Shown here piece after piece: positions 4,309 through 60,349 of a stretch of DNA of 64,000 bases. Origin of the DNA: Candidatus Bathyarchaeota archaeon. Lineage in GTDB: Archaea > Thermoproteota > Bathyarchaeia > 40CM-2-53-6. Position numbers and translations under genes: made by a program. Each line of letters opens with the position of its first letter. Position 1 is the first letter of the stretch. The notes under the pieces were generated by a model. The model did not search any database, had not been told where the DNA came from, and saw only the letters and a list, made by a program, of their open reading frames with translations. Location of the stretch: contig CAWHWX010000004.1 of the NCBI GenBank assembly GCA_963833125.1, positions 1-64,000 of the forward strand, written 5' to 3'.

Positions 4309-4486
4309 TGTAATCCACGATGAAACTCTGTTGTTCCTTGACTGTAATAATTATTCTCGGCCGCTGTTTCCTCGATGGTTTGATTAGTTTACTTCACCTG
4401 AAGGACGGTTTCCTTCGATCCCAAGATTATCGGTTCGAATATTCGAGGATGGTCGAGAGGCGGTCATAATTGTCACAGCTCGCGAA

Positions 4487-5845: not shown

Positions 5846-6099
5846 CTTCTGTCGTCTGCGCCCGAGGATTGTATTTGCTTAAAAGCCTAGGGGTTTCCCA
5901 TCAGCTGGCGTTCTTCCATTTGCGAAGAGGCTTTGTAGAGTCAAACAGACTGGTCTGGTGTCAATCTCCAATAATACTTACCGTTAATCATGGCTCAAGC
6001 TGAATCGAGATCTTGTAAACGGTGCTCTGAAATTACGTCGTATTTTCCATCCCAAAATGTTATATGCAAACTTCTTTTCAGTAGGCGGTGCTGGATTCT

Positions 6100-8018: not shown

Positions 8019-8111
8019 AGCAGCTCAAACTAGCACCCTACCCCGCTATTTTTCGAATCGGGGTGAGGTGATACAAACATATTTCGCGATAACGGTTCGG
8101 TCTAAGGTGAA

Positions 8112-9134: not shown

Positions 9135-10024
9135 GTCACCCTTTGGAATCCAAGATGGCTAGCCATCGCTTTTCTGCCGCTACTCGCAATTTTTTCTCCT
9201 TAATCTTTAGAACAAAGGAAGGCGCGATTGGATTTGGAATTGTAGCGGTGTATCTGGCAACTGCAGTCGTCGTTTTGTTCGCAGAACTGTTCAATATTAC
9301 GGTGACACCCTATGACCCTCTCTTACAGAGCGTGGGCCCTTCCCTTGGAGCGCCTTCCCCCGCGCACCTGTTTGGCACAGACTTTCTTGGTCGTGACGTG
9401 TTCAGTAGAGTCATTTGGAGCCTACCCAACGATTTGTTTGTTAGCTTCGCTGTGGTAGGAATCGCTCTCTTTGCTGGGGCCATTATTGGTGCCGTCGCAG
9501 CATTCAAGGGCGGTTTGCTCGACGAACTACTGATGCGGTTCACTGACGTTATATTCTCGCTTCCAGCGTTGGTGATAGCAATGGTTATCGCGGTGGCTCT
9601 TGGTCCGGGGCTAAGCCACATGATGTTTGCGTTGATGATAATATGGTGGCCACCCTACGCGCGAGTCGCAAGGGGAGAGGCGTTACGAGTTTCACACCAG
9701 AACTACATTGAAGCTGCCCGATTCGCCGGCCAGCGAACCATTGGAATAATATTCAAACACGTACTGCCAAACATCTCGCTGACATTGCTGATTTATGCGA
9801 CGCTTGACATCGCAACCGTGGTCTTGACTTATGCGGGTTTGAGTTATCTTGGATTATCAGTGAGGCCACCCCAACCTGACTTGGGTGAGATGATTAGCAC
9901 ATCTCAGGACTACTTGATAACAGCCCCATGGCTGCCAATCATACCGGGTCTTGTGATCGCGCTTGCCGTCGTTGGTTTTAGCCTTCTGGGGGATGGGCTT
10001 AGAGATGCTCTTGAGGCGGGATGA
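9131..10024 (+). CDS. ABC permease, DppC/OppC type
   Basis: HLFGTDFLGRDVFSR, YIEAARFAG, LLGDGLRDAL. Confidence 0.93.
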   Translation: MSHPLESKMASHRFSAATRNFFSLIFRTKEGAIGFGIVAVYLATAVVVLFAELFNITVTPYDPLLQSVGPSLGAPSPAHLFGTDFLGRDVFSRVIWSLPNDLFVSFAVVGIALFAGAIIGAVAAFKGGLLDELLMRFTDVIFSLPALVIAMVIAVALGPGLSHMMFALMIIWWPPYARVARGEALRVSHQNYIEAARFAGQRTIGIIFKHVLPNISLTLLIYATLDIATVVLTYAGLSYLGLSVRPPQPDLGEMISTSQDYLITAPWLPIIPGLVIALAVVGFSLLGDGLRDALEAG

Positions 10025-11085
10025 TGGGGCCACTCCTGAATATTCAAGGCCTCACCGTAGCCTACGATTCAAGAACGGGGCCAATAACAGCCGTTGACCA
10101 TGTCAACTTACAGCTCCAACAAGATGAATTCCTAGCCATAGTAGGAGAATCAGGATGCGGAAAATCGACGCTGGGCCTTTCCATAATCGGCCTGCTTCCA
10201 AAACCCCCCGCGAAAATCGTTGAAGGATCTATTCAGTACAAGGATACGGACCTCGTGCATCTGCCCGGGAACAAAATCAGAGAATATCGCGGCACCGAAA
10301 TTGCAATGATTTTCCAGGAACCATTAACGAGTCTGAGCCCAGTCTACAGAATAGGCGATCAGATAGCCGAAGCGATCATGATTCGCGAGTCACGGAAGGA
10401 TGGAAAGGCAACTATTGACAGCCAGATCATGCAAAGAACCTACAAAAGAACCGCACGCCTACTGAAACGCACTGTGAAGTTTAAGCACAGAATTCCCGAC
10501 GACCTTCAAGAAGAAGTAATTCGTTACTTGACGTTGGTCAGGATCGGCGACCCCGAACAGGTTCTGGAACGCTACCCGTTCGAATTGTCGGGCGGAATGA
10601 CGCAACGAGTTATGATTGCGATGGCGCTATCCCAAGAACCTGCATTGCTCCTTGCCGATGAACCAACGACAGCCTTGGATGTAACCACTCAGGCGCAGGT
10701 ACTCAAACTGATGAAGGAACTCATCCGGAAGGTCAGAACAAGTATTCTACTCGTGACTCACGACCTGGCGGTTGCAAGCCAGGTTGCCGACAGAGTCGTC
10801 GTAATGTATGCGGGTCAGATAGCTGAAGACGCCGATGTAATCAGCTTATTCTCACACCCAATGCACCCCTACACTCAAGGGCTCCTTTCCTGCATCCCAT
10901 CAGGCTACAAAGACGAAAGCCAGCTTAAGCCGATTTCAGGCTCCCTTCCAGATCTGAGAAGCGTACCAATCGGTTGCAGGTTCGCACCGAGATGCCCGCA
11001 CGCCATGGCGGTTTGCACTAAGAAGCCCCCCCAGCTGATCCAACATGGGAACACCCAGAAGGTGTCATGTTTCCTATATGACTAG
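10021..11085 (+). CDS. ABC ATPase, DppD/OppD type
   Basis: Walker A GESGCGKS, LSGGM, DEPTTALD, HPYT and CRFAPRC. Confidence 0.95.
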   Translation: MMGPLLNIQGLTVAYDSRTGPITAVDHVNLQLQQDEFLAIVGESGCGKSTLGLSIIGLLPKPPAKIVEGSIQYKDTDLVHLPGNKIREYRGTEIAMIFQEPLTSLSPVYRIGDQIAEAIMIRESRKDGKATIDSQIMQRTYKRTARLLKRTVKFKHRIPDDLQEEVIRYLTLVRIGDPEQVLERYPFELSGGMTQRVMIAMALSQEPALLLADEPTTALDVTTQAQVLKLMKELIRKVRTSILLVTHDLAVASQVADRVVVMYAGQIAEDADVISLFSHPMHPYTQGLLSCIPSGYKDESQLKPISGSLPDLRSVPIGCRFAPRCPHAMAVCTKKPPQLIQHGNTQKVSCFLYD

Positions 11086-12070
11086 CACAACAGAAATCAT
11101 ACTCCGAACTGAGAATCTTAAGAAATATTTCCCTATCCGCAAGGGATTCAACCCATTCCTTCGCCGGGAACAACGCTTCGTTAGGGCTGTGGATGGCGTC
11201 TCGATCAGTGTCCAGAAAGGGAAGACAGTGGCAATAGTTGGCGAGTCTGGCTGTGGAAAAACCACCCTCGCAAGAACAATTGGGTTAATGATGCAGCCGA
11301 CAGAGGGGAGGCTCTATTTTGAAGAAAAGGAGATTACAGGTAAAGTTGACCGGAACGAGATCTACCACGACATGCAAATGGTCTACCAGGACCCCGAGTC
11401 CTCTCTCGACCCCCGAATGAAAATCGGACAATCGATAGGCGAACCACTTCATGGTTTAATGAAATGGGAAAAGAAAGTCGTCAACGATGCCGTGACGAGA
11501 AGCCTCGAGCGTGTTGGCCTTTCAGCAGATTTCGCGGAACGTTTACCCCGACAGCTCAGCGGAGGGCAAAAGCAGCGAGTTGCAATAGCCAGAGCGATCG
11601 CGATTCAACCCTCACTAGTAATCTTGGACGAACCTACGAGCGCACTGGATGCCTCCGTTCAAGCGCAAATTCTCAAGCTATTGCTCGACATTCAGAAGGA
11701 ATTCAACCTCACGTACATTCTGATAACCCATAACATCGCGGTTGCAAAGTACATGGCTGACTTCGTCACGGTAATGTACGCCGGCAATGTTGTAGAGTAC
11801 GGGCCTTGCAAGACGGTGATTTCTAAGCCACGACACCCTTACACCATCGCTCTAATCTCATCAGCCCCGGTTCCAGACCCGACCACTCGCAACCTCCTCA
11901 AAACCGAAATCAAGGGAGAAGTACCTAGCGCAATAGACCCACCCTCAGGATGCAAGTTTAACCCGCGCTGCCCATTCGCCGAAGCCATTTGCACTTCGTC
12001 AAACCCGCCGCTTCAAGAGATAGCGCCAGACCACTTCGTCGCCTGCCACTTTGTCAATAAAACGGCATAG
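11078..12070 (+). CDS. ABC ATPase, DppF/OppF type
   Basis: GESGCGKT, LSGGQKQR, DEPTSALD, HPYT, VACH; ATG 11078 overlaps the upstream gene end. Confidence 0.95.
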   Translation: MTSTTEIILRTENLKKYFPIRKGFNPFLRREQRFVRAVDGVSISVQKGKTVAIVGESGCGKTTLARTIGLMMQPTEGRLYFEEKEITGKVDRNEIYHDMQMVYQDPESSLDPRMKIGQSIGEPLHGLMKWEKKVVNDAVTRSLERVGLSADFAERLPRQLSGGQKQRVAIARAIAIQPSLVILDEPTSALDASVQAQILKLLLDIQKEFNLTYILITHNIAVAKYMADFVTVMYAGNVVEYGPCKTVISKPRHPYTIALISSAPVPDPTTRNLLKTEIKGEVPSAIDPPSGCKFNPRCPFAEAICTSSNPPLQEIAPDHFVACHFVNKTA

Positions 12071-12163
12071 CATAACGGCACAAAATTCTTCTTCGAAGCA
12101 ATTCAGAGAAAAGTCGTTATAGAGGCGACAATATTTTCGAGCAGTATTCTGGATGAATTAATC

Positions 12164-13153
12164 ATGTCTCAGGTCAATGTTGGTATAGTTGGTTTAGGCG
12201 CACAAGCGCAGAACCACTTACTCGTGCTTTCACACGACAGCAGAGTTCGGCTGGCCGGTGTCGCCGACCTCCTGAGTCCGGTCGCGGAATCAACAGCCAA
12301 GAAATACGGATGTAAAAGCTACAGAACATATCAGGAACTGATCGACTCAGAGAAACTGGACGCCGTTTACGTTGTAACACCCAACGTCTTCCACTTTGAA
12401 GCCTTGAAATATGCCCTGTCGAAAGGGCTAAACATTTTCTGCGAGAAACCCATGGTCATCAAGCTGAACCACGCCGCCGAACTAGTCAATCTAGTAAAGT
12501 CCACCGGCGTAACCTTTCAGGTAGGACACAACCGCCGATTCGCATTGGTATACAAGAAAACGAAACACCTCCTCACCTCTGGAAAGATCAAGCCGTACAT
12601 GGTCATCATGAAGATGGTTACAGGGGAATTACAGCGCCCAGCCTGGGGTGCAGACTCGAAAATTTCAGGCGGCCACCTTTACGACACGACACTACACATG
12701 CTCGACATGGCACGATGGCTTTTCGGAGAAGTGAAAGAGGTCAATTGTCGGGCCGAAGCAAATGTGTACCCCAACATCCTCAACGATTTCTGGATCAACC
12801 TAACCCATAACTCAGGACTTCAAGTACCAATATTCACGTCGGGACACGCATCATGGATAGTCCCCTTCGAAAGAGTCGAAGTAATCGGTGACCACGCAAC
12901 TATCATCACCGAGGAGATGAACAGAGTCAGCTACACTCTCAGCTTGGATACACCGACAGAAGTAGAAGAGTTCCATTACTTACCCCAAACGCTGAGCTGG
13001 GGCGTTGAAGAAGAAGACAAACTCTTCATCGACGCCATCGTTGGGAAACAAAAACCCCCGGTGACGGTTGATGATGGATACAAGATTGTTGAAATAATCG
13101 AGGCCTGTTACCGCTCAGCCGAATCCCGAAAACCCATCTCACTCCCACTCTAA
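12164..13153 (+). CDS. Gfo/Idh/MocA oxidoreductase (inositol dehydrogenase-like)
   Basis: VGIVGLG, FCEKP, VGHNRRF, GGHLYDTTLHMLD. Confidence 0.9.
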   Translation: MSQVNVGIVGLGAQAQNHLLVLSHDSRVRLAGVADLLSPVAESTAKKYGCKSYRTYQELIDSEKLDAVYVVTPNVFHFEALKYALSKGLNIFCEKPMVIKLNHAAELVNLVKSTGVTFQVGHNRRFALVYKKTKHLLTSGKIKPYMVIMKMVTGELQRPAWGADSKISGGHLYDTTLHMLDMARWLFGEVKEVNCRAEANVYPNILNDFWINLTHNSGLQVPIFTSGHASWIVPFERVEVIGDHATIITEEMNRVSYTLSLDTPTEVEEFHYLPQTLSWGVEEEDKLFIDAIVGKQKPPVTVDDGYKIVEIIEACYRSAESRKPISLPL

Positions 13154-14809: not shown

Positions 14810-15184
14810 ATGGGATTTCATTACGAGCGTGCGCCGGACGTTACAGAACTCTTGCTGAGGATTGTTGACAAGTTAGAGTTCACGCATGTGCCGAGAAATC
14901 GGGTTTACTGTTACCGGAGTTATGGGTCGAAGGCGACCAACACCATAGCCCGCGTTCACTCCTTACCTAAGATTTGGCAGCAGGCTCTGAGCGAACCGGC
15001 TTATTATGCGGTTGAGGTTTTGTCGGAACAGTACGATTCACTTCCCCATGACGAGAAGGAGAAAACCTTGATCCATGAACTCCTACACATACCGAAGAGT
15101 TTTGGCGGCGGCTTCAGGCACCACAAAGACTACGTAACCCGCCGACGAGTGGAAGAGCTCCATAGAGCGTTAAGGAATAGCTAA
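14810..15184 (+). CDS. Putative Zn metallopeptidase (HExxH), conserved archaeal type
   Basis: TLIHELLHIP and GGFRHH motifs. Confidence 0.75.
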   Translation: MGFHYERAPDVTELLLRIVDKLEFTHVPRNRVYCYRSYGSKATNTIARVHSLPKIWQQALSEPAYYAVEVLSEQYDSLPHDEKEKTLIHELLHIPKSFGGGFRHHKDYVTRRRVEELHRALRNS

Positions 15185-25821: not shown

Positions 25822-26091
25822 TCATTTACCACGTTTGCCGTAGCGTTCTAGTTCTTGCGCCCTATACATAGTAGCCCTGGTACAGAACTCTTTGGCTATG
25901 CAGTAGAACAGTTTGGCGGCATCCTCATCCTCTGAGAGATAGCAAGATTGGCTACTGAACTCTAAATGCTTCTTGAAAGCACTAATGAATTTTCGGTGTA
26001 GCTTTTGATAGAAGTAGACCCGCCTAGCTTCGTTCTCAGTTGGTAAATCGTATTCGACGACGTACAACCAATTCACCAGAGACACATGCAT
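25822..26091 (-). CDS. Stand-alone Cas2/VapD-like small protein
   Basis: 89 aa; YVVEYDLP...RR..FYQKL...SSQSCY matches the Cas2/VapD YD and QxS pattern; SD AGGTG directly before the ATG. Confidence 0.55.
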   Translation of the reverse strand: MHVSLVNWLYVVEYDLPTENEARRVYFYQKLHRKFISAFKKHLEFSSQSCYLSEDEDAAKLFYCIAKEFCTRATMYRAQELERYGKRGK

Positions 26092-26172
26092 ACACCTGTA
26101 AGATATATGGGTTGCCGCCCCAATTAAAGCTTACGTTCGTATGCATCACACGGTATGTATACAGGTGTATGC
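26088..26172. repeat. Perfect 13-bp inverted repeat flanking a 59-bp promoter-like spacer
   Basis: gcatacacctgta (26088-26100) and tacaggtgtatgc (26160-26172). Confidence 0.85.
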
Positions 26173-26407
26173 TATGCTATGCTTGCCATAGCTTAGGAAT
26201 TTTTCAGGGGAGATAACGAATTATCCCCAACCTCTAAAGACGCTTTAGCCCCTACCTCTTTGAAGAGCCTGTATTCGTGAGATGGCAACTGCAATTACAG
26301 TCTGTTGTTCCCACTACGCCGTAGTGAGTTATTCCATTTGGCTTGTTTGCTCTTTCAAGGCCCTTACAAAAGTCGTTATGTTCCAATCACAATCACCTCG
26401 TTTCTAG

Positions 26408-26638
26408 CTAAGGCCAGAAACCACCGTTAATGCAGCCCACTTCCTCGCATCTGTGAGGTGGGTTGTGCCCAAAATCCAGAGCACATTTGCATATGTGAGT
26501 CGGGTGCTCCGTAGTCTGTCTAAATTCAGGGCATTTTGTCACAATTATCATCGCAAAGGAATCTAAGCGGTGCAGATACTTTACATAGCAAGGGAGTTTT
26601 GTGACCTCATAGTACCGTGAAAGTGTTCCTACACCCAA
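26408..26638 (-). CDS. Small Cys/His-rich hypothetical protein (element cargo)
   Basis: CPEF...HICKCALDFGHNPPHRCEEVGC; start uncertain. Confidence 0.4.
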   Translation of the reverse strand: MGVGTLSRYYEVTKLPCYVKYLHRLDSFAMIIVTKCPEFRQTTEHPTHICKCALDFGHNPPHRCEEVGCINGGFWP

Positions 26639-26681
26639 TCGCTAATAATCGCAAGATGATTAGTTGACGTCTTGAAAGCTT

Positions 26682-27134
26682 ATGAATCGTTGGATGATTG
26701 CGACTGTAATTCTAAGTGTTGCGTGCGTAGCATTAACTGGAACTTCTGTAGCATTCTATAGCGAGTTACAAACCGCAACTAAGACGCAAAACGGCGGACT
26801 CACCTACATCGGGTCAATTACTAATTTCTCTGAGAATTATAACTTAACGTACGGCTCAATTACGGTTAACTACGTGTCAGCAGGTAGCGAAGGAGGCGGC
26901 GTAGCCCTATACTCTAACGATACGTCAGTGCGTGTTCTGATGGTAGTTCATTATCGAGGTTTCATAAACACGATAGTTTTAACTCCATACCAAGCAGGCA
27001 CATTCACGACTGCCGTCGGCGGTCAGGAATACATTGCTTGGTCGGAAACTAATATTGGTCCCTACAACAACGAGTATGAAGCTCTCGTTCCTTCGGGTAC
27101 TACCGAGCTTGATTTCTACATTCTAACTAACTAG
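26682..27134 (+). CDS. Membrane-anchored/secreted hypothetical protein (element cargo)
   Basis: N-terminal hydrophobic helix, beta-rich body, N-glycosylation sequons NFS/NLT/NDT. Confidence 0.7.
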   Translation: MNRWMIATVILSVACVALTGTSVAFYSELQTATKTQNGGLTYIGSITNFSENYNLTYGSITVNYVSAGSEGGGVALYSNDTSVRVLMVVHYRGFINTIVLTPYQAGTFTTAVGGQEYIAWSETNIGPYNNEYEALVPSGTTELDFYILTN

Positions 27135-27230
27135 GCATTATTCATTGCAGAACTAAAACCACAGCTACCCACATTTAAGGTAAAGACAAATGGCTAACAC
27201 TAGTTCAAAAAATGCAGGTAAGGATGGAAT

Positions 27231-27491
27231 ATGATTCATGAAAAACGGCTAAACGCCGTAATTAATAGACATGGAGAGGCATTGCTGAGAGCCTTAGAAG
27301 ACGCTCCTAACCACCAAGGGCCCATTCAACTCTCTCTCGATGGAGTTGTTGATGTCTCAAATGCTCTAGCCGCTATCGCAATGTACCGTTCAACTAAACG
27401 TCTCGAACGATTAACTGGAGCACTTGTAGCACTTACTGGCGTCTTGGCAATTCTGACAGCAACTCTCGTTTGGGAAGCTTTCTTCAAGTGA
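27231..27491 (+). CDS. Small protein with C-terminal TM helix (element cargo)
   Basis: STKRLERLTGALVALTGVLAILTATLVW. Confidence 0.6.
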   Translation: MIHEKRLNAVINRHGEALLRALEDAPNHQGPIQLSLDGVVDVSNALAAIAMYRSTKRLERLTGALVALTGVLAILTATLVWEAFFK

Positions 27492-27632
27492 ATTTAGGGG
27501 TTTCACTTTCCCTTGCGGAAATAGGCTAACGCGTCCTTTTGTAAAATGAACTCGAACCCTGCCTCAATTGGCCTGGTATCTGATTCAACGTTTTTCAGTT
27601 TGGAAAGTTACTGTTTAGTCTCGTTGTTCGCC

Positions 27633-27788
27633 ATGCAGTGTCCCAAATGTGGTGAGGCAATGAGTTACTTGAAATTCTCTTGGTACTGCATTTTAGATGA
27701 CGTTTGTTTGGACAAATTCGGTAATCCTCTCAACAGGTTCGACCCGAATTATATGGCTAATACCCATGTACTTAGCAGCATTACCTAG
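27633..27788 (+). CDS. Zinc-finger microprotein (element cargo)
   Basis: MQCPKCG...WYC..DDVC; overlaps an antisense ORF. Confidence 0.45.
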   Translation: MQCPKCGEAMSYLKFSWYCILDDVCLDKFGNPLNRFDPNYMANTHVLSSIT

Positions 27789-28103
27789 AGTTGCAGTCTG
27801 CGTGGAAGCATACTGACCGGGGTAGTCCTCGTAAGTAACATTCCGTGATTGGATTGATGGGTTTTGAGATGGATAAACGAGCCCTGCTTGTTTATCCAAT
27901 TTCTGTGCTTGTGCTGGACTGAAAAGGTTGAATGATGTTCCGTAAGTTATGACTTGATGCTTGGAAATACCACTTGAATAGATCACTGGAACGAGAGTAA
28001 CGAAAGCTAATGCCACAAAGACGCACGCATAAACTCTCCTAGAGAGTGAGCCTTGGTCTGGGCGCATCAATATTTTTGCAGGTCCCCTAATAGACACAGC
28101 CAC
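27693..28103 (-). CDS. Hypothetical membrane-anchored protein (element cargo)
   Basis: ORF track; hydrophobic VFVALAFVTLVPVIY segment; 3' end uncertain. Confidence 0.5.
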   Translation of the reverse strand: MAVSIRGPAKILMRPDQGSLSRRVYACVFVALAFVTLVPVIYSSGISKHQVITYGTSFNLFSPAQAQKLDKQAGLVYPSQNPSIQSRNVTYEDYPGQYASTQTATLGNAAKYMGISHIIRVEPVERITEFVQTNVI

Positions 28104-28180
28104 GAACTTAGCCGTTCTGAAAAACGTTGGTTGCGCAAGGTTAGTCTTAAACTAAAAATATGACATTTTTGGTCTAGACG

Positions 28181-28417
28181 TTACGGGAGCGGACTTGCGG
28201 TAATAGCGACCAAAAATCTTTCCTTTAACCACTTACAATCGATGATTTCCATTCCAGTATCTGAGTAAATAGCGGAAAGCTCCGAAAAGCTGAACCCTTT
28301 ATTCCAATATAGTCCGTACATCCCAGAAAGGGGAAGCCCTAGATTAACGATAGTCTGCGTGATAGGTTTCGGCAGCATACTCAGAATTGAGTCTCTTACA
28401 CGCATAAGTAGACGCAT
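28181..28417 (-). pseudogene. Truncated gene fragment, possibly the C-terminus of a SAM methyltransferase
   Basis: GFSFSELSAIYSDTGMEII resembles class I MTase C-termini; the frame extends only ~20 codons upstream to a stop. Confidence 0.35.
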
Positions 28418-28624
28418 ACGAACTGTCGAATTAGTAAGAACTTTTGACCATTCAAAATGTACTGCTTGGCTTCTCTACGTTCCTGATTAGTGGACGCACG
28501 GACGTGTTCCTTCTGACTTGTCTCTGAGATGTCTGTAGGGTGCGGACCTTGCGGCATCCGTTCTGTGGGTGCGGCAGCCTTCCTCAGATTTCAGGCTTCA
28601 GGTGGCGGCCCTTAACGCTTATTT

Positions 28625-28683
28625 ATCGAAGCAACACCCACGTGGTTCTGACGACCGTCAAGGAAGACTTACGCCTCCTCTAA
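28625..28683 (+). repeat. attR-like repeat: displaced original 3' end of the Lrp gene
   Basis: atcgaagcaacacccacgtggttctgacgaccgtcaaggaagacttacgcctcctctaa encodes the same peptide; 13-bp identical core atcgaagcaacac. Confidence 0.9.
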
Positions 28684-28700
28684 CCTAGGAGGAGGGCTGG

Positions 28701-29717
28701 TTGGCTTATGCGTCCCGACGATCAAGCTATCTAATCGCGGCCTTCGGCGCAGTCATTCAAGTCTTCGTATGGTGGTGGGACGCACTCTCGCAGGTGCTAT
28801 TTGGAAACGTGGGCTCTTGGTGGATCCCAACACACTTGGCATTCTATGCAGCCATTGCGATAACAGTCATCGGAGTTTGGCAAGGTTTCCGGTATTCCCC
28901 GAAACTAACTCCCCTTTCGCTCAGCCCGATTCGATTTGTGAACATCGCGGGGTTGAAGCTTGCCGGAGTGGGTTGCTTAATCGAGATCATAGCAAGTATC
29001 TGGAATGAAATCTTTCACCGCGCCCTTCTGGACCATCCTGGGATTAGTCCTGCAAACGCGCTGCTCACGGTTGGAATGTTAACTGTGAACCTTGGCATTG
29101 TGATCGGGTTGGTAATTGAGGGTGGGATCATTAGCCACGGGCTCGTCATTAGCGTCCGCTGCAAGGCGACGTGTAGTTGCTCTTTTCGTTTTGTTGAGTT
29201 TCTCTTCGATATGGCTTGCCGTTGCCGGCGCTTTCATTTTCCTCGGACGGACATTTCGTTCATTCCCAGCGAATTGGTTAGTCGCAGGTTTTGCTCGCTT
29301 TCATGGCGACATTCGTCGTTCGTCCCTGTGAAGAAGGTAATGCCAAGGTTCGGATCAGTCGTCGCCGTTGGATTTGCTTTCAACGCTGTAACGTACATTG
29401 TTGTCGCGGTCTATTCAGGCATGCCTTTCTACTTTCCTTGGGGGTTTCTCCCCGTCATTTTGTTTGATTTGGTCTTGTACGTTCTGACTCCGATCGTCGG
29501 TTTCAAGCGTACTATCATCTTTTCATCGTTAATCGTGGGTGTGTTTTTCTGGGCGACCTACTACCCGTTCACAATTTACTTGTTCCCTTGGTCGTTTGCG
29601 TTCCAACTCCCAGTCTTTGCTGTGGTTCTGGGAAGTGTGGTCGGAGGGTTAACGGGGAATAAGGTCTACGCGAGTCTCTCCTCAGTAGTCCTTAGTGACG
29701 TTGCAGTTTCCGTGTGA
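28701..29717 (+). CDS. Polytopic membrane protein with WD/WN-xxx-H...P-x-H type motifs; compensating frameshifts ~29150-29310
   Basis: SD AGGAGG before TTG; many TM segments; the hydrophobic middle section is in ORF 29116-29331. Confidence 0.7.
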   Translation: MAYASRRSSYLIAAFGAVIQVFVWWWDALSQVLFGNVGSWWIPTHLAFYAAIAITVIGVWQGFRYSPKLTPLSLSPIRFVNIAGLKLAGVGCLIEIIASIWNEIFHRALLDHPGISPANALLTVGMLTVNLGIVIGLVIEGGIISHGLVISVRCKATCSCSFRFVEFLFDMACRCRRFHFPRTDISFIPSELVSRRFCSLSWRHSSFVPVKKVMPRFGSVVAVGFAFNAVTYIVVAVYSGMPFYFPWGFLPVILFDLVLYVLTPIVGFKRTIIFSSLIVGVFFWATYYPFTIYLFPWSFAFQLPVFAVVLGSVVGGLTGNKVYASLSSVVLSDVAVSV

Positions 29718-36198: not shown

Positions 36199-36516
36199 TC
36201 AGGTCTTGCCTGTCATCATGCCCAGCACACCCACAACCGAGATCAACCCACCGACAATCAGGATCAACGGCTCTTGGGTGCGAACATAAACAAGACCGGT
36301 AAATGTAGCGAGGGTAGTGAGCCCTACAATGTTGATGAAGGCTAACCTCTGCTGTTCATTCAAGTCAACTAAAGCCTCTGCATGAACAGCTCCACGATTC
36401 GCCAACCCGTGTATATCTCTGTTCCTCTCTGACGAACTCTTATCCCACGTAACGTCTTCAGGAATATCTAATTCCATGTGCTTGGACTGCATGGTTTCCA
36501 GAATCGTTAGGATCAA
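36199..36516 (-). CDS. Small membrane protein, hypothetical (start uncertain)
   Basis: Two C-terminal hydrophobic helices. Confidence 0.4.
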   Translation of the reverse strand: MILTILETMQSKHMELDIPEDVTWDKSSSERNRDIHGLANRGAVHAEALVDLNEQQRLAFINIVGLTTLATFTGLVYVRTQEPLILIVGGLISVVGVLGMMTGKT

Positions 36517-37697
36517 TTTGACCGGCCAAACACCCGCACCCTCACTTTTTGACAGATTCTCCTCTGATATGGTGGATCTATCAACGGAGGTATATGGGCC
36601 GGAAACGCCTGCAATACTTGAGGCTCTTTCGAAACCCGTTGGGACCTATTATGTGAGATGCAACACTCTCAAAATATCACCTACGGAACTCCGGAAGAGG
36701 CTTGCGGATAGAGGTCTCAGAGTCGAATCACATCCCGCTCTGTCCGAGGCTCTGGGAATACAAGTGGATGGACCGTTTGAGATTTCCTCGACCAATCTGC
36801 GGATGGTGGTTGACAAATTCACCGCGGAATCTGTCTTGCAGGGAGCGAACGTTTACGCGCCAGGCGTCAAGAATTGTCATTCCATACAGACGGGAGATCG
36901 CGTGACCATCGTCTCCGAACTGGGGGATATTCTCGCCAATGGGACGGCAGCGATGAACACGACTGATATTCTCACATTCAAGAAAGGACTGGCTGTAAAG
37001 ATCGAGAATCGACGATTCAAGTCTCCACAAATAAGAGACTTACCGGAATTCTCCGATGGCTTACTGTACCCGCAATCGCTCGCTGCAATGATCACATCTC
37101 ACGTCCTCGACCCGCAGGAAGGAGAAATCATTTTGGACATGAATTGCGCGCCGGGCGGCAAGTTGTCTCATCTGAGTCAGTTAATGCGAGCCACCGGAAA
37201 GATAGTTGGTTTAGACCGAAACGCCGACAAGATCGCACAAACCCGCCACACGATCACCAACCTGGGCTGTTCCAATGTAACTCTCGCAATACATGATTCT
37301 AGGTATGTGGACGCAGACTTTGCGGAATTTGAAACCAGATCGAGTCCTAATCGATCCACCTTGTAGCGCCCTAGGCCTCAGGCCGAAAATTTACGACCAT
37401 ACAAAGAAGCAAAGAGTCGATGATCTTGCCGAATACCAGAAGCAGTTCATTAAGGCGGGTAGCCGGGTCGTAAAACCTGGTGGAGTGGTTGTGTACAGTG
37501 TCTGCACTTTCACGGCACAAGAGTGTGAAGGAGTCGTTGAGTTCGCTGAAGAGGAGTGCGATTTGCATACAGTGCAGCAGACTCCTTTCCTAGGCTCGAC
37601 GGGTTTGGGAAGAACCGGAGAACCGGCCCTTCTCTGCCAACGATTTCGCCCAGACACGGACGAGATTGGATATTTCATTGCAAAATTCATACGGTAG
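36476..37697 (+). CDS. RsmB/NOP2-family RNA m5C methyltransferase with PUA domain; frameshift near 37325
   Basis: ESVLQGANVYAPGV (PUA), DMNCAPGGK, LIDPPCSALG, VYSVCT. Confidence 0.9.
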
Positions 37698-37764: not shown

Positions 37765-40410
37765 ATGAGCAACATGATGAAAAGTTTCGTTTTCGCAATC
37801 GTGCTACTTCTCGTGTTGTCAGCCATGCCGCCCCTTGCGGTGAATGGACAGCTTCTGGACACATTTACCATGAACTATTCCCCTACCACTCTAAGCGTCC
37901 AGCAAGGTGATTCCGGCACAGTCCAGATCACAGTTACTTCGATAAACAACTTCAGCGCGCCGGTATCTTTGTCATTCACTGATGCGCCGATTGGGGTGTC
38001 AATTAATTTTGATAATAACCCCGTGACTCCTCCACCAGGCGGCGGCGACTCGAGCACCGCCTACTTCAGTGTGGATCCCAGCGTGCCCGCTTCCACGTAT
38101 CAAATGACGCTGGTTGGTTCAAGCGGTTCTGACGTTAAGAACTACGATTTCAGCCTGCAGGTCACACCTCTGATCGTGCCCGGAGATTTCGGAATTTCAG
38201 TCTCGCCACAAGTCGTCAATGTTCAAGCAGGCGGCTCAGGAGCAGCGACCGTCACGATAACCTCAATTAACGGTTTCTCCGGCCCGGTAACTCTATCGTC
38301 AAGCGGTCAACCTTCGGGCGTGAGCGTCAATTTCTCCCCCAGCGCCCCCGCCCCATCTCCTGGCGGTTCAGCCGATTCTTCAGTGAGCCTTTCTGTCGCT
38401 AACTTCGTCCAAGCTGGATCTTATCCCCTCACGATAACGGGCTCTGGGAGCAGCAGCTACATAATCCAACACTCCACTCAACTCAATCTTCAAGTGTCCT
38501 CTCCACAAGATTTCACGATAACCGTTAACCCGACAAGCATTAACATCCAGCAAGGTGGATCCACCACCGCCACCGTTATTGTGAGTGCGATTGGCGGGTT
38601 CTCCTCCCCAGTAGGTCTTTCCACAAGCAACGGAGTCCCTTCAGGCGTTCAGGTTGGTTTCTCACCGAACCCTATCACTCCGGGAAGTTCGACCATGTCC
38701 ATCAACGTTGCAGCCTCAGCAAAGGCTGGGACTTTCAACTTCCAAGTATTGGGGACCAGCGGAAGTCTAAGTCACGCCACAACGTTCACGATGACAATCT
38801 CGCAAGCCTCCCAGCCAAGCTTCTCTCTATCATCCTCCTCAGGCTCACTCTCGCTCTCTCAGAGTGGGACAGGGTCGGTTAAGATAGTCGTGTCCTCGGT
38901 CAACGGTTTCTCGTCGCCCGTCAACACATATGCTTCTTGGATTGGTCCGACTCCGTCAGGCATCACTGTCACGGGGCCTGGCCCATTGACGCCACCCGCG
39001 AACGGGGCAACGTCTGGCACGCTTACCCTGACAGCCTCGGCAAGCGCGTCTGTCGGCAACTATCTCCTGAGCTTGGTGGGTACGAGCGGTTCGCTCAGTA
39101 CTAGCACGAATATAGGAGTGCAAATCCTAACCGGCTCGGGTGACTTCAGTCTCTCCCTATCACCATCAACCGTAACAATGATTCAGGGCTCCGCCGCAAC
39201 CTCAACCCTAACAATACAATCCTCAGGAACATTCGCCTCACCCGTAACACTCTCAGCCTCACCCGCGAGCGGATTAGGCGTTACTTTCGCAACAAATCCG
39301 TTAACCCCGCCGGTCACGGGAAAGACAACCACTCAAGTAACAATTACGGCTGCGGGAACTGTCGGTACCGGAACCTACACGGTTCCGATAATCGGGACAG
39401 GCGGATCGCTATCTCACACCACTAGCATTACGGTAACAGTAAACGAAGCGGAAACCCCGGACTTCACTGTAGTTGCGGGACCTAACGCGATCTCAATCGC
39501 TCAAGGAGCCTCCGGAAACTCCGTAATCGCGGTCCTCTCACAAAGCGGCTTCAGCTCACCAGTAGCGTTGTCGGCTTCCTGGCAAGGAACATCCCCAATG
39601 GGAGTAACCTTCAATCTTCCCAGCCCCATTACCCCGCAACCAAACACCGTGGCCACATCAACATTAACGGTAACCGCATCACCCGGATCCTCAATTGGAA
39701 CGTACACACTCGACGTGACAGGTAGCAGCGGCGCCCTTATTCATAAAACCCCAATAACAGTGCAAATCTCAGGTTCCGGCGTAACAACAAGCACAAGCAC
39801 AGGCTCAAGCTCAACTACGACTAGTGCTCCTGGACCAACGTGCTTCATCGCTACCGCCACCTACGGGTCCACTCTCGCTCCCGAAGTTCAATTCCTCAGA
39901 AGTTTCCGCGACAGGCAAATCGTGAAGACCTTCGTCGGATGGAACTTTATGATCGCCTTTAACACGTGGTACTACTCCTTCAGTCCAACTGTCGCACAAT
40001 CCATAATTCAACACCCAACGTTTCAATACACCATGAGGATCGTGCTCTACCCGCTAATCGAAATTCTTAGGTTCGGCGCCCTATCCTTCAACGTACTCCC
40101 CGCTCACCAGGAGCTGGCAGGCATCCTCTCAGGCTTGCTGATCAGTTCACTAGTTGGAGTCACTTACCTTGCTTTGCCATTGACAGTATTGTTTAGGTTC
40201 ACACCGAAGCTGAAGAGAAACGCTAAGAGGGCTCAAAAGATTCTGTGCGGAGTTCTACTATTTTCTCTGTTTGCAGTCGCTATTGCTGAACTCTCAGCTT
40301 CAGCTCCGCTGATGATCGTGATGAGCGCAACGGCAGCTCTCTCAACCCTACTGCTCTCAGCCCTATTTACATCCGGGAAACTCTTGCGGCTAAGAGGGTT
40401 GAAAACTTGA
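37765..40410 (+). CDS. Large Ser/Thr-rich surface protein with ~6 Ig-like repeats and CFI-box-CTERM domain
   Basis: Signal peptide; repeats DF.I.V.P...QG...GFSSPV.L...GSLSH; CFIATATYGS...EVQFLRSFRD; C-terminal TM helices. Confidence 0.85.
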   Translation: MSNMMKSFVFAIVLLLVLSAMPPLAVNGQLLDTFTMNYSPTTLSVQQGDSGTVQITVTSINNFSAPVSLSFTDAPIGVSINFDNNPVTPPPGGGDSSTAYFSVDPSVPASTYQMTLVGSSGSDVKNYDFSLQVTPLIVPGDFGISVSPQVVNVQAGGSGAATVTITSINGFSGPVTLSSSGQPSGVSVNFSPSAPAPSPGGSADSSVSLSVANFVQAGSYPLTITGSGSSSYIIQHSTQLNLQVSSPQDFTITVNPTSINIQQGGSTTATVIVSAIGGFSSPVGLSTSNGVPSGVQVGFSPNPITPGSSTMSINVAASAKAGTFNFQVLGTSGSLSHATTFTMTISQASQPSFSLSSSSGSLSLSQSGTGSVKIVVSSVNGFSSPVNTYASWIGPTPSGITVTGPGPLTPPANGATSGTLTLTASASASVGNYLLSLVGTSGSLSTSTNIGVQILTGSGDFSLSLSPSTVTMIQGSAATSTLTIQSSGTFASPVTLSASPASGLGVTFATNPLTPPVTGKTTTQVTITAAGTVGTGTYTVPIIGTGGSLSHTTSITVTVNEAETPDFTVVAGPNAISIAQGASGNSVIAVLSQSGFSSPVALSASWQGTSPMGVTFNLPSPITPQPNTVATSTLTVTASPGSSIGTYTLDVTGSSGALIHKTPITVQISGSGVTTSTSTGSSSTTTSAPGPTCFIATATYGSTLAPEVQFLRSFRDRQIVKTFVGWNFMIAFNTWYYSFSPTVAQSIIQHPTFQYTMRIVLYPLIEILRFGALSFNVLPAHQELAGILSGLLISSLVGVTYLALPLTVLFRFTPKLKRNAKRAQKILCGVLLFSLFAVAIAELSASAPLMIVMSATAALSTLLLSALFTSGKLLRLRGLKT

Positions 40411-53881: not shown

Positions 53882-55175
53882 TCAGAACTCTCGTCGTACA
53901 ATCCAAGTCTTACCCGTAGGAAGTCGCTCCAGATTTGCAACGTCTTTGATGATAACCTTTGTTTCGCGGCCGACAACGCTCATCAAGACATTTTCAATCG
54001 CTAATCTGTCTTCCGCTGAGGGTGATTTCGACCAAACTACTCGCAACTCCAGAATGTTTGGGGCTGTTTGCGCAAATTGATAGAAACGTATCAGCTCGGT
54101 GAAATCATTCGTGACGAAGAGTAACGCCCCCAAGGCCCCACCGCTCAGAATCCTCTTGCTGGGAAGGACAATCGTCTCTGAACTGCGACCCTCGATGTAT
54201 TCAATTATCGGCCAACCCCCAACTGACCTCTCGCCGTCTAAAGCGGCTAGGTCACCTGTATCATATCTAACGAAGGGAAAAACGCAGTTATTCAAGTCCG
54301 TTACAACCAGACGGCCGCTTTCTCCCGGCGATACTGACTTGCCCTTATCATCAACTACTTCCACATATGCAAGGAATGGGTTAAACGCGTATTGGCGTGT
54401 TCCAGGAAGAGTCCCCGCAAGAAAACCATTGAACTCATGTGAGCCATACCATGAATGCACTGGACATTTGAAGACCCTTGAAATTCGTCTTTCTGCTTGA
54501 ATTGTCAAGAGGTCGGCAGTTGTGATAACGCAAGATGGTTGGACGGTCATGACTATACTCTGTCGGTCGATCTCGGACGCAATCCAATCCAGTGCACTTG
54601 CGACTCCGTACAGTGAGTAGCCGGGGAGCGACATCCATACTTTGAGCTCTTTCTCTATCGAGGCGGGTGTAAGCTCTAGTGCTGATACGGGATGAGTATT
54701 TTCGTCAAGTCTATCTGGCATGTTCCACGCCAGCGAGATCATTGTGGCCGAGCTCGGGACAACATGAAGCCACTTGAGGAATTGGAATGCGGCCCTGTCT
54801 AAGGAATCCTGCGACCGTGTCCCGATAGAATGCCATAGGTTGTCCGGTGCTCCCGGATGTAGTTAACGGCCTCCTTCGATCTACAGGAACGTCCTCAGCG
54901 AGGATACTCTCACTACGCTCTCGGATTATCTGTTTCGTAAGGATGGGAATTTCCTCAAACGGGCGTCCGACATCAATCACCTCACGGTAATAGCGACATC
55001 GTTCGACCGCGAATCGGACCATCGCGTCCCTTAACCCGCAACTTGCTACCTTCCAAGTGCCGGAGTCACCCTGCCACGCTGCGAGCATTTTCTGATACAT
55101 CCGATCCTGATCATGGAGGCCTCGAAGAATGTCAGTTTCCCCACCTGACCGATTCCCCACCTCCTCATCGAGCAT
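53882..55175 (-). CDS. Phenylacetate-CoA-ligase-like (CapK/PaaK) adenylate-forming domain; probably the C-terminal part of a fused gene 53882-56390; frameshifted
   Basis: TTSGSTGQP, WYGSHE, VRYDTGD, IEGRS, LPTGK. Confidence 0.8.
55121..55156 (-). repeat. 36-bp inverted repeat, copy 1 (in frame, encodes NRSGGETDILR)
   Basis: Reverse complement ggaatcggtcaggtggggaaactgacattcttcgag; 34/36 identical to 58275-58310. Confidence 0.9.
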
Positions 55176-56390
55176 TTTTCTCTTCGCTCCGTTTGACGGA
55201 TTCTCTCACGTTCTAATTCGCTAACATGTTGGAGAAGCATCGGTCCGTCACCGTCCTTATACACATCTTTCGCAAGGGCGACACCCCAAGCGGTGAGTCT
55301 TGAGATGTCGCCCCGCACGTACTTCCGGGAATGCGACTTGCAAATCGGATCTACACAGATACAAATATAGGAGCAAGGAAATCCCCGGGTCCAGCTCATA
55401 CCTGCTCAAATCTATCGAGTCCAAGCGTGAAACTCGCATGTATATGACTCTCCGAAAATATCTTTGAAAGCCTCATGAACTCCATTTAAACTCTCCAGCA
55501 TTTCCATGGAAATACTACCCCCTTCAGATTCCATTAGGAGCCTCATTCTCCACATCATGTCCTGCGTACGATTCTCCACGAATTGGTCGCACAGATGACG
55601 ATCTGGGTCTCGGATGAGTCTCGGATAATTCCAGTATTTCCGAGCGAAAACCAAACGATCTGCTAAATGGAGCAGCGCATGTTCTTTGTGGTAACAACGG
55701 TAACCTAGGCACACATCTAGGTAATGAAAGTCTGTCAATTCACGGAGGCGAAGGAAAAAATCACGATCTTCGGAAATTAACAGATCAGCGTCGAAACCAC
55801 CCACTTTGAGTATTATTTCCCTTCGGCAAAACGCTGTTGAGGGATGGATCACGCTTCCCTTTAACAGGAGATCTTCCCATGAAGGGGCATATCGCAAGTG
55901 CGGCGGCAAGGTCGTGAATCCTAGTCTTTCTACTTGCTCGTTGAAGTCTTCAAGGTTGCTGAACGTTAAACCGACCGAAGGGTGCCTCTCGAGGATTTCA
56001 ACTTGGATTGCGAGTTTCTCTTGAACCCAGAAATCATCCTGATCGAGGAAGGCTATGTATTTTCCGCAGGGCGAGATTGATTCCGTGGTTACGCGCACTC
56101 GCGACTCCACTATTCCTTTGCTCAACCAGGCGAATCTTGGATCCATACCTTCGCAACAATTCGATGCTTGAGTCAGCAGAGCCGTCGTCTACGACGATGA
56201 CTTCACGCTCGCGGTAGCTCTGTTCCAGAACATTGTCAACTGCACGGCAAATAGTTTCCTGTCCATTGTAAACTGGGATGATCACGCTAACCAGCGGGAA
56301 ATTTTGCCCTGATACCTCACTGGGAGAATTGTTATCCTTGTTAAGTGCCAACTGTTTCGAGTTGTGGTTTATCTCGTTGTTGAAAAGCAT
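55176..56390 (-). CDS. GT2 glycosyltransferase plus RxDLQxAFP domain; frameshifted; probably the N-terminal part of the fused gene
   Basis: VSVIIPVYN, VVDDGS, GVASARN, FLDQDD, SEDRDF; YLCRSDLQVAFPEV in ORF 55257-55439. Confidence 0.85.
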
Positions 56391-56657
56391 CGTATATGCC
56401 TCGATGACCCATTGTTTTCTCTTTACTCACAGGGCCTGGCACGTTTGTCTACACTGGAAGCCATTTACCTACTTTTAGCTTACACAGGCTTCAGCGAGTT
56501 CTGGGAGCACAGGAGATAAATCATTCTGTTTTCCTGTAACATGATTCTACTGAAAGGCTCTGCACCTCGTTTACCGCGAGACTGGAGCAATTGAGCTGAG
56601 CGAAGGGACTAGGAACCAGTGTCTAGTGGATATCAAATCCTCAATGGGGTGTAATAG

Positions 56658-59600
56658 GTGAGAAGCAGAATTGGAATACTCCATGATAATATCAGTGGCA
56701 ACACAGGAGATGTAGCCATCGGCCTGAGTGTCAAGAAAATCCTCACCGCAATTGGGGTGTCATTTGAGGAACTTGTTCCCGGCAGATTCAATCCGAAGAA
56801 TTATCAGATGATCATTATCGGTGGTGGGCATCTGCTTCGGCCCTCACCCGATTTCTTCTATGATAAGTTCCGGGTGCTTGGGAATCATATTCTGAACTCG
56901 TGCGGGATAGTAGGGGGCCCTAGCGATCTCCAATACCTGGATGACTACATGTATCTAAGCGTAAGGAGCGAAGGGGACAGGCGAAAACTTGGTTATCTCA
57001 GGAAAGAAGTGAGTGTAGTACCATGCACTTCGATGCTTTTAGATGAGGCTAAGGGATTCAAACTCTCAATCAAGAAACCTAGTATAGGATTGCATCTGGG
57101 GCCCGGCATTGAAATGCTGTGCCCCCAGAGCGACGAGCCCCTGATCGAATGGATTGCATCGCTACGTCGCCGTTTCAATGTGTATCTCATTCCGATGACT
57201 TACTACATGCATGACTTCACGTATCTGCATGGACTCTCCTCCAGAGTAAAGGGATGTGAGCTTCTTCCTGTCTTGAAGCCCCGTGAAGTTCTAACCACTA
57301 TAGGGCAGTTTGACTATTTCGTAAGTTCCTCTATGCATGGCGCAATTTTCTCGTACATGCAGAAAGTCCCCTTCATCGCAATGGACTTCGAGAAGATCAG
57401 ATTCTTCATGCAAGACCGAGGACTTGAGCGATACCTCTTCCACGATCTTGACGGAATGAACGCGCAAGCATTCGGCACCCTACTCCAAAACGCTCCCAAC
57501 TACTCTCCAATCCTTGCAAAGGACTACGATACGTTACACCAGCATGTGCAACGCATGAAGAACATCTTGAGGCAACACAGACAGGCGAAACTGAACAGCG
57601 TAGCAACAAAAGAACTTGAAAAGCGCAGACTCTGGGCAAGAAACCGATTCTCAAATTCATAACATGCAGCTTCAGCTAATGGACTTGTTAGCACTATCCG
57701 AGAAGCAGACGCAGGAGTTAAGCGAGGTCAAGGCAAACTTTGCTCAGGGTGAATCTAAGGTTCAGGCTTTGGAAGGTGAGAAGTCCAAGCTGGGTGAGGA
57801 GCTGAATCGAACGAGGACGGAGGCTTCACAGCGCGAATCTAACGTTCTGGCTGAAATGAACCAAGTCAGAGCAGAACTATCTCACACCCAGGAAGAACTT
57901 GACGCCGTACTGGGAAGCGTTAGCTATAATGCACTTCGATTCTTTACCAAACGTATCGATCAATTGTTTCCAGACAATACGTGGCCTGGACGTTTGCGCA
58001 AGAGAGTTGTATCACGCCTTAGAAGAGATCGTAAGCCCCGCGATTTCAAGAACACCAACAAAGCAGTTCCTCAGAAAGTGCGTTGGTCGGATAAGACTCG
58101 GAAGCTCGGGCGCGGTTATTCTTAGGATACTTCGGGAAGAAGGAATGAACTCTCTATTTGTGAAAGCGCTTGAGAAGATTCGTAGAAGGGAATTTGGAAT
58201 CACTAGGGAAGAATGGGGGCAAATACTAGAGGAACCTCCAACATCGGAGCGGAAAAGGCGCTATGACGAGTTTAGGAATCGGCCAGGTGGGGAAACTGAC
58301 ATTTTTCGAGACGTCTATCAGAGCATGTTATCAGTCGCCACTAGTGGTGGAAATCATGAAAATCGAACGATAGGCAAAGGATACGCGCCTGCGACTAATC
58401 GTGTGAAAACGATTGCATTCTACCTTCCCCAGTTCTACCCCATTCCAGAAAATGATGTCTCGTGGGGAAAAGGCTTCACTGAATGGACCAACGTTTCGAA
58501 GGCGGTCCCACAATTTGTGGGCCATCATCAACCCCGGCTACCTGGAGAATTTGGCTTCTACGACCTACGATTTATTGAAGTTCAAAAGACTCAGATCGAA
58601 TTGGCGCGTCAGTATGGCGTTTATGGTTTCTGCTTTTACTATTATTGGTTTGACGGTAAACGGCTACTTGAGCGTCCCCTTGATAATTTCCTCACGCATA
58701 CAGAGCTCGACTTTCCTTTCTGCCTATGTTGGGCCAACGAAAGCTGGAGTCGCCAGTGGGACGGCCTAACAGGTGAAATTCTCGTGCCTCAGAATTATTC
58801 CTCGGGTTGGGACCTCAAATTCATTCAGAGCATTGAAGACATACTTCGTGATAAACGGTACATCCGTATCCACGGCAAGCCACTTCTAATTGTCTATAAA
58901 CCCGGTAAATTGCCGTCGGCTCGGTCTGCGGCGGAAAGGTGGCGGAAATATTGCATAGGAAAGGGAATAGGCGACTTGTACCTCGTGGCCGCCCAGACAT
59001 TTGGGTTCGTCGACCCGCAACCGATAGGATTAGACGCCGCCCTTGAGTTTCCACCCCACAACGCTGTTACTCCCGAAATAACACACAAAGTACAATTACT
59101 CAATTCCAAGTTCGCCGGGAAGGTGTATGATTACAGGGATATGGTGGAAAGGCAAATTTCAAGGACAGACGAAACGCCCTTCGACAGGTTTCTCACCGTT
59201 ATGACGGGTTGGGACAATGAGGCGAGGCGACCTGGCCGAGGGCACATTTTCGCTTTTTCGACACCCACAGCGTATGCAAGATGGCTTCGATATGCTTGCG
59301 AACGAACAACTACGCTACAACCGGATGCGGAGAAGCGTCTGGTCTTCGTAAACGCTTGGAATGAATGGGCTGAGGCAGCCTACTTGGAGCCTGATCGACA
59401 GTACGGGCGTGCCTATCTGAATGCGACTGCATCTGCGCTGAGATTTTCCGGTGAATCCGTTGGAATAGATCGACCCAATAGCTTACCCGCTTGGCAACTG
59501 GAAAAACACTCGAAAACAGCGGTCATACTGCATCTTTACTATCCTGAGCTGATCGAAGAGATTTTCGGATATCTCAATAATCTGAACGGAGATTTCGACC

Positions 59601-60349
59601 TTTTCGTTTCTATACCAAAAAATATTAACTTCTCCGAAGAGGAAATCTACAGACGTCACGCTCACGTTTACCTTTACCGTTGCGAAAATAGAGGGCGCGA
59701 CATTGCTCCTTTCCTTAGGATCTTTTCTGCGCTTGTACCCGCTCAACTATGACTATGTATGCAAAGTCCATTCCAAGAGAACCCTGCACAAAGTTGACGG
59801 GGATTTGTGGCGCAAGGATGTATGTTCGAAGATCTTGGGCGCTCCGGAGGATCATTTCAAAAGTGAAAGTAGCGCTCCATCGACCGAACATTGGAATTGT
59901 TGCGCCAGCCGGGACATGTACTCCCTTCAGAATATTACTGGGGCGTGGATAGCGAAGGAAATGCGAACAGAGCTAATGTCGCACGATTTTGCCGAGAAGT
60001 AGGTCTGGAGATCGGTGATCTAAATTTCCACTTCGTAGCGGGTTCAATCTTTTGGTTTAAGCCTAGGGTTCTTCAGCTGCTCAATAGAATGCCGATCGAC
60101 ATTCAAGAATTTGAGGGTGAGCCAGCACAGAAAGATGGAACATTGGCACACGCCTTCGAGAGATTCTTCGGTCTCCTAGCACAGCAAGAAGGCTTCGAAA
60201 TCGCTGAAATCAACAGCAACCTCAAAATGACAATGCCCAGCACCGGAAGCCTCCCCAATTACCGTTGGGCGACTGCAACAAGAAACGGAAAGGTGTATGT
60301 ATCTTCGAAGAAGATGCCCCCGACGACTAACGTGGGCGAAACTCTTTGA
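56658..60349 (+). CDS. Multidomain glycan-biosynthesis protein: polysaccharide pyruvyl transferase, coiled coil, WbsX/GH99-like and RgpF-like domains; several frameshifts
   Basis: GNTGDVAI, SVRS, SSMHGAI; heptad region; IAFYLPQF..WGKGFTEW, NAWNEWAE; ENRGRD, KVHSK, DGTLAHAFER in overlapping ORFs. Confidence 0.8.
58275..58310 (+). repeat. 36-bp inverted repeat, copy 2 (in frame, encodes NRPGGETDIFR)
   Basis: ggaatcggccaggtggggaaactgacatttttcgag. Confidence 0.9.

Follow-up and report, generated by a model that had tools for sequence, protein, structure and literature searches.

An in-frame inverted repeat in two divergent archaeal glycan genes, probably a static trace of recombination between their leaders

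Does an inverted repeat that lies in frame within two divergent genes mark a DNA switch, or is it a relic of past recombination? The question is raised by an island of glycan genes at 53.9–60.35 kb of a 64,000-nucleotide (nt) stretch of Candidatus Bathyarchaeota archaeon DNA (contig CAWHWX010000004.1, positions 1 to 64,000; hereafter the window), where the leader of a minus-strand ligase gene and that of a plus-strand multidomain gene carry the two arms of such a repeat. A preliminary description of this DNA took the geometry for that of a shufflon, in which inversion would exchange the N-terminal modules of two fused enzymes, and offered a one-off domain-shuffling scar as the alternative. The comparative data favour the latter, and the repeat is probably a static scar of ectopic gene conversion or domain shuffling between neighbouring leaders.

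The arms and the genes around them are as follows.

55113–55186, minus strand: arm A (74 nt), placed in the 5′ leader of the PaaK-like ligase gene and apparently copied from the leader linker of the WbsX family, encoding KRKMLDEEVGNRSGGETDILRGLH
58245–58318, plus strand: arm B, the linker segment native to the WbsX-RgpF gene, encoding ERKRRYDEFRNRPGGETDIFRDVY; the Pfam WbsX domain follows 26 residues downstream
55121–55156, minus strand: core of arm A, 34/36 identical to 58275–58310, with a 20-nt perfect run
58275–58310, plus strand: core of arm B, the counterpart of 55121–55156
53882–55240, minus strand: PaaK-like adenylate-forming ligase gene, with candidate starts at ATG 55240 or ATG 55175
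55311–55424, minus strand: 'DLQxAFPE' leader module between GT2 and ligase, reading ...CRSDLQVAFPEVRAG / GDISRLTAWG...
55412–56390, minus strand: GT2 glycosyltransferase gene, with its own-frame stop at TGA 55412
56391–56657, no strand: divergent intergenic region (267 nt) between the GT2 and PS_pyruv_trans genes
56658–57662, plus strand: polysaccharide pyruvyl transferase module (PS_pyruv_trans), running on into the coiled coil after a frame break
57616–58110, plus strand: coiled coil and 'SxSY..RID.LFP' module, matching residues 139–259 of homologue P0004 at 64% identity
58109–60349, plus strand: linker-WbsX-RgpF body, matching P0004 residues 259–982 at 72% identity, with the C-terminal half of RgpF
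minus strand, frame breaks: CCC 56069–56071 (GT2 gene), ~55430, G4 run 55311–55314 (DLQ module), A5 run 55175–55179 and ~54815 (both ligase), placed with homologues as guides
plus strand, frame breaks: 57610–57660 (after the pyruvyl transferase), GGG 58108–58110 (end of the coiled-coil module), ~59729, ~59849 and GGG 59911–59913 (RgpF), placed likewise

The repeat and the genes that carry it

A repeat search of the window pairs arms A and B over 74 nt with 59 matching bases and 15 mismatches (80% complementary), 3058 nt apart, and a gapped local alignment returns the identical ungapped block. The inverted core with its 20-bp perfect run, from which the preliminary description started, is thus borne out by alignment, and so is the placement of both 5′ parts and the divergent region within the 3.1 kb between the repeats. 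Both arms are read in the same frame, and BLASTP extends the match across a 6-residue gap to the YQKML/YQSML similarity that had been noticed beside them (14/30 identical, E 3e-4 for the pair). The core 18-mer GGTGGGGAAACTGACATT has two exact occurrences in the window, where shuffles predict 0.03.

The assembly to which the window belongs (3.07 Mb in 39 contigs, 87.8% complete, 7% contamination; the window is C4:1–64000) was searched with a 111-nt repeat query, and BLAST returned the two arm sites only, the second at E 2.2e-12, together with a chance 20-mer at E 1. A tblastn search over the genome found no third copy of the linker at the protein level. The preliminary description had proposed a search for further copies of the GGETDI linker; genome-wide, at both DNA and protein level, there are two.

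Identity is unevenly spread along the arms, at 34/36 in the core versus 25/38 outside it. With the 15 mismatches placed randomly in 20,000 trials, a window of at least 36 nt with two or fewer mismatches arose in 2.3% of placements, and 7.5% contained a perfect run of 20 nt or longer. Arm A also holds a 16-nt tandem unit (55130–55145 and 55146–55161), reading GGTGGGGAATCGGTCA and GGTGGGGAAACTGACA on the coding strand and 81% alike. In arm B the first 16-nt unit resembles the second far less, and arm A may therefore have undergone local slippage or conversion at this unit.

The domain calls made earlier for GT2, PS_pyruv_trans, WbsX and RgpF hold in a Pfam scan, in which the AMP-binding/PaaK-like match is weak. 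WbsX (PF14307) is found in the plus-strand gene at E 4e-130 and RgpF (PF05045) in three pieces. The ligase scores 57–72 bits against NCBIfam DVU1553_fam_AMP (cut-off 300), 27–34 bits against PaaK models (cut-offs 646–700) and 18 bits, below cut-off, against Pfam AMP-binding, and matches phenylacetate-CoA ligases of the PDB at E 3e-7 to 3e-4; these matches support a PaaK-like label at the superfamily level only. Its upstream candidate start, ATG 55240 (MLLQHVSELERE...), resembles the start of its closest homologue, P0001, and the break at the A5 run counts only with that start. The 'DLQxAFPE' module between GT2 and ligase was located by tblastn with P0004 residues 69–101 and with proteins of the metagenome loci L016 and L017.

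The two genes had been described as fusions, and this stands for one of them. PS_pyruv_trans and the coiled coil form one continuous open reading frame (ORF) in L016 and L017, and coiled coil, linker, WbsX and RgpF are continuous in P0003, P0004 and P0005. For GT2 and the ligase, fusion is unproven: all three ligase homologues (P0001 in locus L015, and those of L016 and L017) are encoded by genes of their own. In the window, the frame-corrected path from the DLQ module into the ligase meets no stop codon.

The origin of each arm

The homologues on which the comparison rests are the three intact proteins recovered by searches with the linker region and two metagenome loci.

P0003, 1004 amino acids (aa): Methyltransf_24-coiled coil-linker-WbsX-RgpF
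P0004, 987 aa: DLQ-coiled coil-linker-WbsX-RgpF
P0005, 1119 aa: Methyltransf_24-coiled coil-linker-WbsX-RgpF
L016 4247–8461 and L017 224–6648, each on one strand: GT2-GT2-DLQ, ligase, then PS_pyruv_trans-coiled coil-DLQ-coiled coil-linker-GT2

All three non-self full-length homologues carry, just upstream of WbsX, a linker of the form ...ERK(M/F)(L/I).(D/E)EFRN..G.T(D/E)(I/V)FR(D/E)FYESMLSVA, and arm B has the corresponding motif EFRN..G.TDIFR.FY.SML directly upstream of WbsX. The plus-strand gene and P0004 remain colinear to either side of arm B, at 64% identity upstream and 72% downstream. Because of this colinearity and the presence of the linker in 3/3 homologues, arm B is, as judged by comparison, the native sequence of the WbsX-RgpF family. 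A phmmer search of the whole library with an 80-aa linker query found a single cluster (P0005) at E ≤ 0.001, of ordinary architecture, and the linker is therefore confined to a small WbsX-RgpF family. An 8-residue insertion, GITREEWG (58190–58213), distinguishes the window's WbsX leader from those of P0003, P0004 and P0005 just upstream of arm B.

The ligase side differs. The closest ligase, P0001, is a stand-alone protein of 473 aa at 83% identity, labelled Bathyarchaeia by its source and encoded between AP_endonuc_2-like and bicupin-like genes, a neighbourhood other than that of the window's ligase. Its similarity to the window, in protein and in DNA, starts at 55112, one base inside the arm A edge at 55113, and is poor upstream. 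The ligases P0001, L016 and L017 (the latter two at 57–58%) all read ...D(H/D)DP(M/I)YQKM..., and none of the three has the GGETDI motif. Since the orthology with P0001 begins at the arm edge and the motif is absent from all three ligases, arm A is best read as a foreign patch in the ligase 5′ leader.

Both arms share a derived 'GGETD' where P0003 and P0004 have 'T[EG]GTD', and are therefore each other's closest relatives. Among 24 aligned codons, 12 encode the same residue, 11 of these with the identical codon, and the other 12 residues differ; mismatches at codon positions 1, 2 and 3 number 9, 3 and 3. Arm A alone has the family-invariant F, R and F of the WbsX linker replaced. Because same-residue codons are nearly all identical while half of the residues differ and invariant ones are lost, the codon pattern points to a fairly recent copy at the DNA level followed by drift without WbsX-family constraint, and not to an old motif under purifying selection.

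The sequence of events would then be ectopic recombination between two neighbouring, oppositely oriented and distantly related leaders of the 'coiled coil - linker - YQxML' type. About 74 nt of the WbsX-type linker (perhaps ~100 nt with a 3-nt gap) would have been copied, inverted, into the 5′ leader of the ligase gene by non-crossover gene conversion or by shuffling at the leader, replacing a ligase segment that reads ...LENSLSLRIGRKIPLGKQIRNLLHPIDQLSGQNSLRPSE in P0001. The copy would have stayed in frame, lost the WbsX-family constraint and now be drifting. The repeat itself, its frame and two-copy status, the native arm, the junction and the codon pattern are observed directly; from them we infer the direction of copying, the conversion mechanism and the absence of regular switching.

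Four points weigh against this account. The identity of the arms clusters in the core, as a maintained recombination site would give; the signal (2.3% and 7.5% of random placements) is weak, and a second, more recent short conversion tract or chance explains it equally well. Only one close ligase homologue, P0001, sets the position of the junction. Arm A retains 'KML' like P0003 and P0004 where arm B has 'KRR', so that A is not a simple recent copy of the present B. Finally, should the frame breaks be genuine mutations, both genes would be dead and the in-frame placement of the arms moot.

Decay, inversion and common ancestry

The last of these points leads to the first alternative, that the island is decaying or poorly assembled, its genes pseudogenes or its consensus unreliable, and the repeat without functional consequence. 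The broken reading frames reported earlier are present in the assembled sequence, with about ten one-base frame changes needed to read the island. Breaks are dense here, at about ten in 6.5 kb compared with three clearly split genes across the other 57 kb, and the metagenome-assembled genome has the completeness and contamination given above. Most of the resolved breaks are one extra G or C in short runs, a systematic pattern more like consensus error than decay. The three RgpF breaks lie within ~185 nt, each with one extra G relative to P0004, and jointly restore the original frame. Frame-corrected alignments to homologues contain no interrupting nonsense codons, at 64–85% identity.

Outside the island, three housekeeping-type genes are split into two overlapping ORFs each, DAO at 3153–4308 (minus strand), Aminotran_3 at 4487–5603 (minus strand) and RsmB-F at 36476–37697 (plus strand), the paired ORFs matching consecutive parts of one Pfam family. 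Single-base indel problems of the assembly therefore extend past the glycan island. Since the resolved ones are mostly single extra G or C residues, and since no nonsense codons remain and the three in RgpF restore the original frame, the breaks that crowd this accessory island are probably for the most part errors of the consensus; genuine decay of recent date may account for them instead. As an explanation of the repeat, decay or poor assembly is unlikely, and misassembly cannot yield a 74-nt repeat of 80% identity.

Two further candidates were rejected. Misassembly as the source of the repeat conflicts with its form, a diverged 74-nt in-frame repeat being unlike a chimeric join, and the bin has no contig with an alternative junction. 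Programmed −1 frameshifting at the A5 run in arm A was discarded because no canonical slippery heptamer is present and the other island breaks occur without such a site.

An active gene-altering inversion, shufflon-like or of the 'partial intergenic inverton' kind, would flip 55187–58244, swapping 5′ modules and promoters and diversifying the surface glycan. Its driver would be either a recombinase whose gene lies elsewhere or RadA-dependent homologous recombination at the 20–36-nt core. The geometry suits it: the inverted repeats are in frame just upstream of catalytic bodies, they enclose both 5′ parts together with the divergent region, and a crossover in the core would join frames as PS_pyruv_trans-coiled coil-linker-ligase and (GT2-DLQ-)leader-WbsX-RgpF. 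The core is better conserved than its flanks (p about 0.02–0.08), and the conversion tract, if the patch is one, shows at least one past recombination between the sites.

No recombinase domain was found by Pfam among the 67 window ORFs scanned, which agrees with the earlier remark that no invertase is visible in the window, and no tyrosine or serine recombinase is encoded on the 251-kb contig C4. The 87.8%-complete genome has no match to PF00239 and 12 to PF00589, all on other contigs, and the latter count in favour of inversion. Genome-wide searches at DNA and protein level revealed neither silent cassettes nor extra repeat copies beyond the pair, and the arms are 80% identical overall. The parts to be exchanged are unrelated enzymes, GT2/DLQ against PS_pyruv_trans/coiled coil, or ligase against WbsX-RgpF.

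The swapped architectures that the preliminary description suggested looking for were absent from the homologues searched: the linker precedes WbsX-RgpF in 3/3, and none of eight longer ligase relatives (502–2000 aa, 30–35% identity) has PS_pyruv_trans or PF00535. The one cluster returned by the library search with the linker has the ordinary architecture as well, and the assembled orientation is the one colinear with homologues of both genes. Beyond its geometry, the shufflon inference found no support in these tests; active inversion is improbable at this locus and nothing indicates a programmed switch. Rare inversion at the arm site is conceivable, since an intermediate that resolves by conversion can also resolve by crossover. 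The idea that the present gene order arose when the arms once recombined by inversion was considered separately and rejected, since the plus-strand gene is colinear with P0004 across arm B and the difference from the L016 and L017 gene order needs breakpoints outside the arms.

Improbable as well is an ancient N-terminal leader common to both enzyme families and kept by protein-level constraint without recent DNA exchange, for which speak the Y[QE]xML that follows a coiled-coil leader in both families, the weak alignment of the L017 ligase N-terminus into arm A (from 55151) and the coiled coil and 'SLSLRIG'-type leader of P0001, but which is opposed by the identical codons at 11 of 12 same-residue positions while half of the residues differ, the opposite of long purifying selection, and by the lack of the motif in 3/3 ligase homologues.

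A modular gene class and its known counterparts

If the repeat is a scar of conversion or shuffling, its surroundings supply a setting. At other loci the leader modules DLQxAFPE, coiled coil-SxSY and LRILREEG...KIRRREF are joined to different catalytic domains: in L016 and L017, where PS_pyruv_trans-coiled coil-DLQ-coiled coil-linker-GT2 is one ORF of at least 879 aa, they come before GT2, and in P0003 and P0005 they come after Methyltransf_24. A second glycan cluster in the window's own genome, at C1:188–208 kb, has DLQ, SxSY and LRILREEG modules beside GT2 domains. Because the same leaders join different catalytic domains across loci, shuffling at shared leaders is the norm in this glycan gene class. 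Only 4–7 nt separate the ligase stop from the next start in L016 and L017. The window carries the three gene types of these loci, but there the GT2-ligase pair and the pyruvyl-transferase gene point in opposite directions.

The order coiled coil-linker-WbsX-RgpF is common to the modular WbsX (PF14307)/RgpF (PF05045) proteins of the window, P0003, P0004 and P0005; what differs is the N-terminal module, PS_pyruv_trans in the window, Methyltransf_24 in P0003 and P0005 and none in P0004.

The general process with which the locus compares is ectopic gene conversion, or domain shuffling, among paralogous stretches of adjacent genes. As there, the sequence around a short DNA tract of high identity is unrelated or weakly related, and of the two arms one is native and one a patch, with an edge that falls where orthology with the recipient's relatives starts. 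Unlike the typical case, donor and recipient leaders bear only a distant resemblance, and the direction is drawn from four homologues only.

For gene-altering inversion, the comparison examples are the R64 shufflon, with its Rci, and hsdS inversion systems. Here too the repeats are inverted, in frame and within coding sequence, so that parts of genes would change places on inversion, and cell-surface glycans are a typical target of phase variation. Unlike shufflons, the locus has no nearby recombinase, a single repeat pair, repeats 80% alike and unrelated enzymes instead of domain variants.

Gene-altering programmed inversions, among them 'partial intergenic invertons', are described in PMC10028968, which reports that 42 long-read datasets from archaea yielded only 12 putative invertons, a single one being partial intergenic. 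The window locus resembles these and shufflons only in geometry; although the organism is unusual, the feature is of an ordinary kind. Were inversion nonetheless to occur, two alternative pairs of multi-enzyme fusions would give two surface-glycan states, and the locus would be among very few gene-altering inversions known in Archaea, unusual in exchanging unrelated catalytic modules. As a scar, it would be a small, clear example of archaeal glycan genes rebuilt by recombination at coiled-coil/linker leaders, and a caution against calling such repeats in modular genes phase-variable, when they are inverted and in frame, without proof from reads.

The island genes were sought in 40 relatives, 400 genomes of the class and 58 of the family, and matches were confined to a strong one in G006 and a 39-residue match in G003. 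The G006 protein, from the same genus, is a stand-alone WbsX of 491 aa without GGETD that keeps only FRELYQSML. The ligase N-terminus occurs in none of the 40 relatives, and a scan of genome contigs with P0001 for closer ligases gave only distant ones (22–45% identity). Around the counterparts, in G013 and G006, of the YbaK-like gene that flanks the island there are no SRP54, L21e or island genes within the 17–18 kb compared, so that synteny sets no borders for the island. On this distribution, the 53.9–60.35 kb segment is classed as an accessory, sporadically distributed glycan-gene island.

Elsewhere in the window, Pfam families that mark an archaeal host include L21e, Rpb4/RpoF, eIF-5A, deoxyhypusine synthase, PAC2 and DUF655. 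An ORF of 881 aa at 37765–40410 (plus strand) has no Pfam match, and neither do three ORFs in a stretch of lower G+C content at 26000–29700 (0.44 at 26–28 kb); a 'PhageMetallopep' ORF lies at 14810–15184. The second glycan cluster (C1:188001–208000) is larger than the island, with several GT2 genes, Methyltransf_24, an ABC-2 transporter pair and a UDP-GlcNAc 2-epimerase, and its row of minus-strand ORFs of 192–294 aa suggests frame breaks there too. At its start, contig C16 of the same genome has an unusual row of tyrosine recombinase genes, with six Phage_integrase (PF00589) matches in 12 kb (1240–12959) of a single strand.

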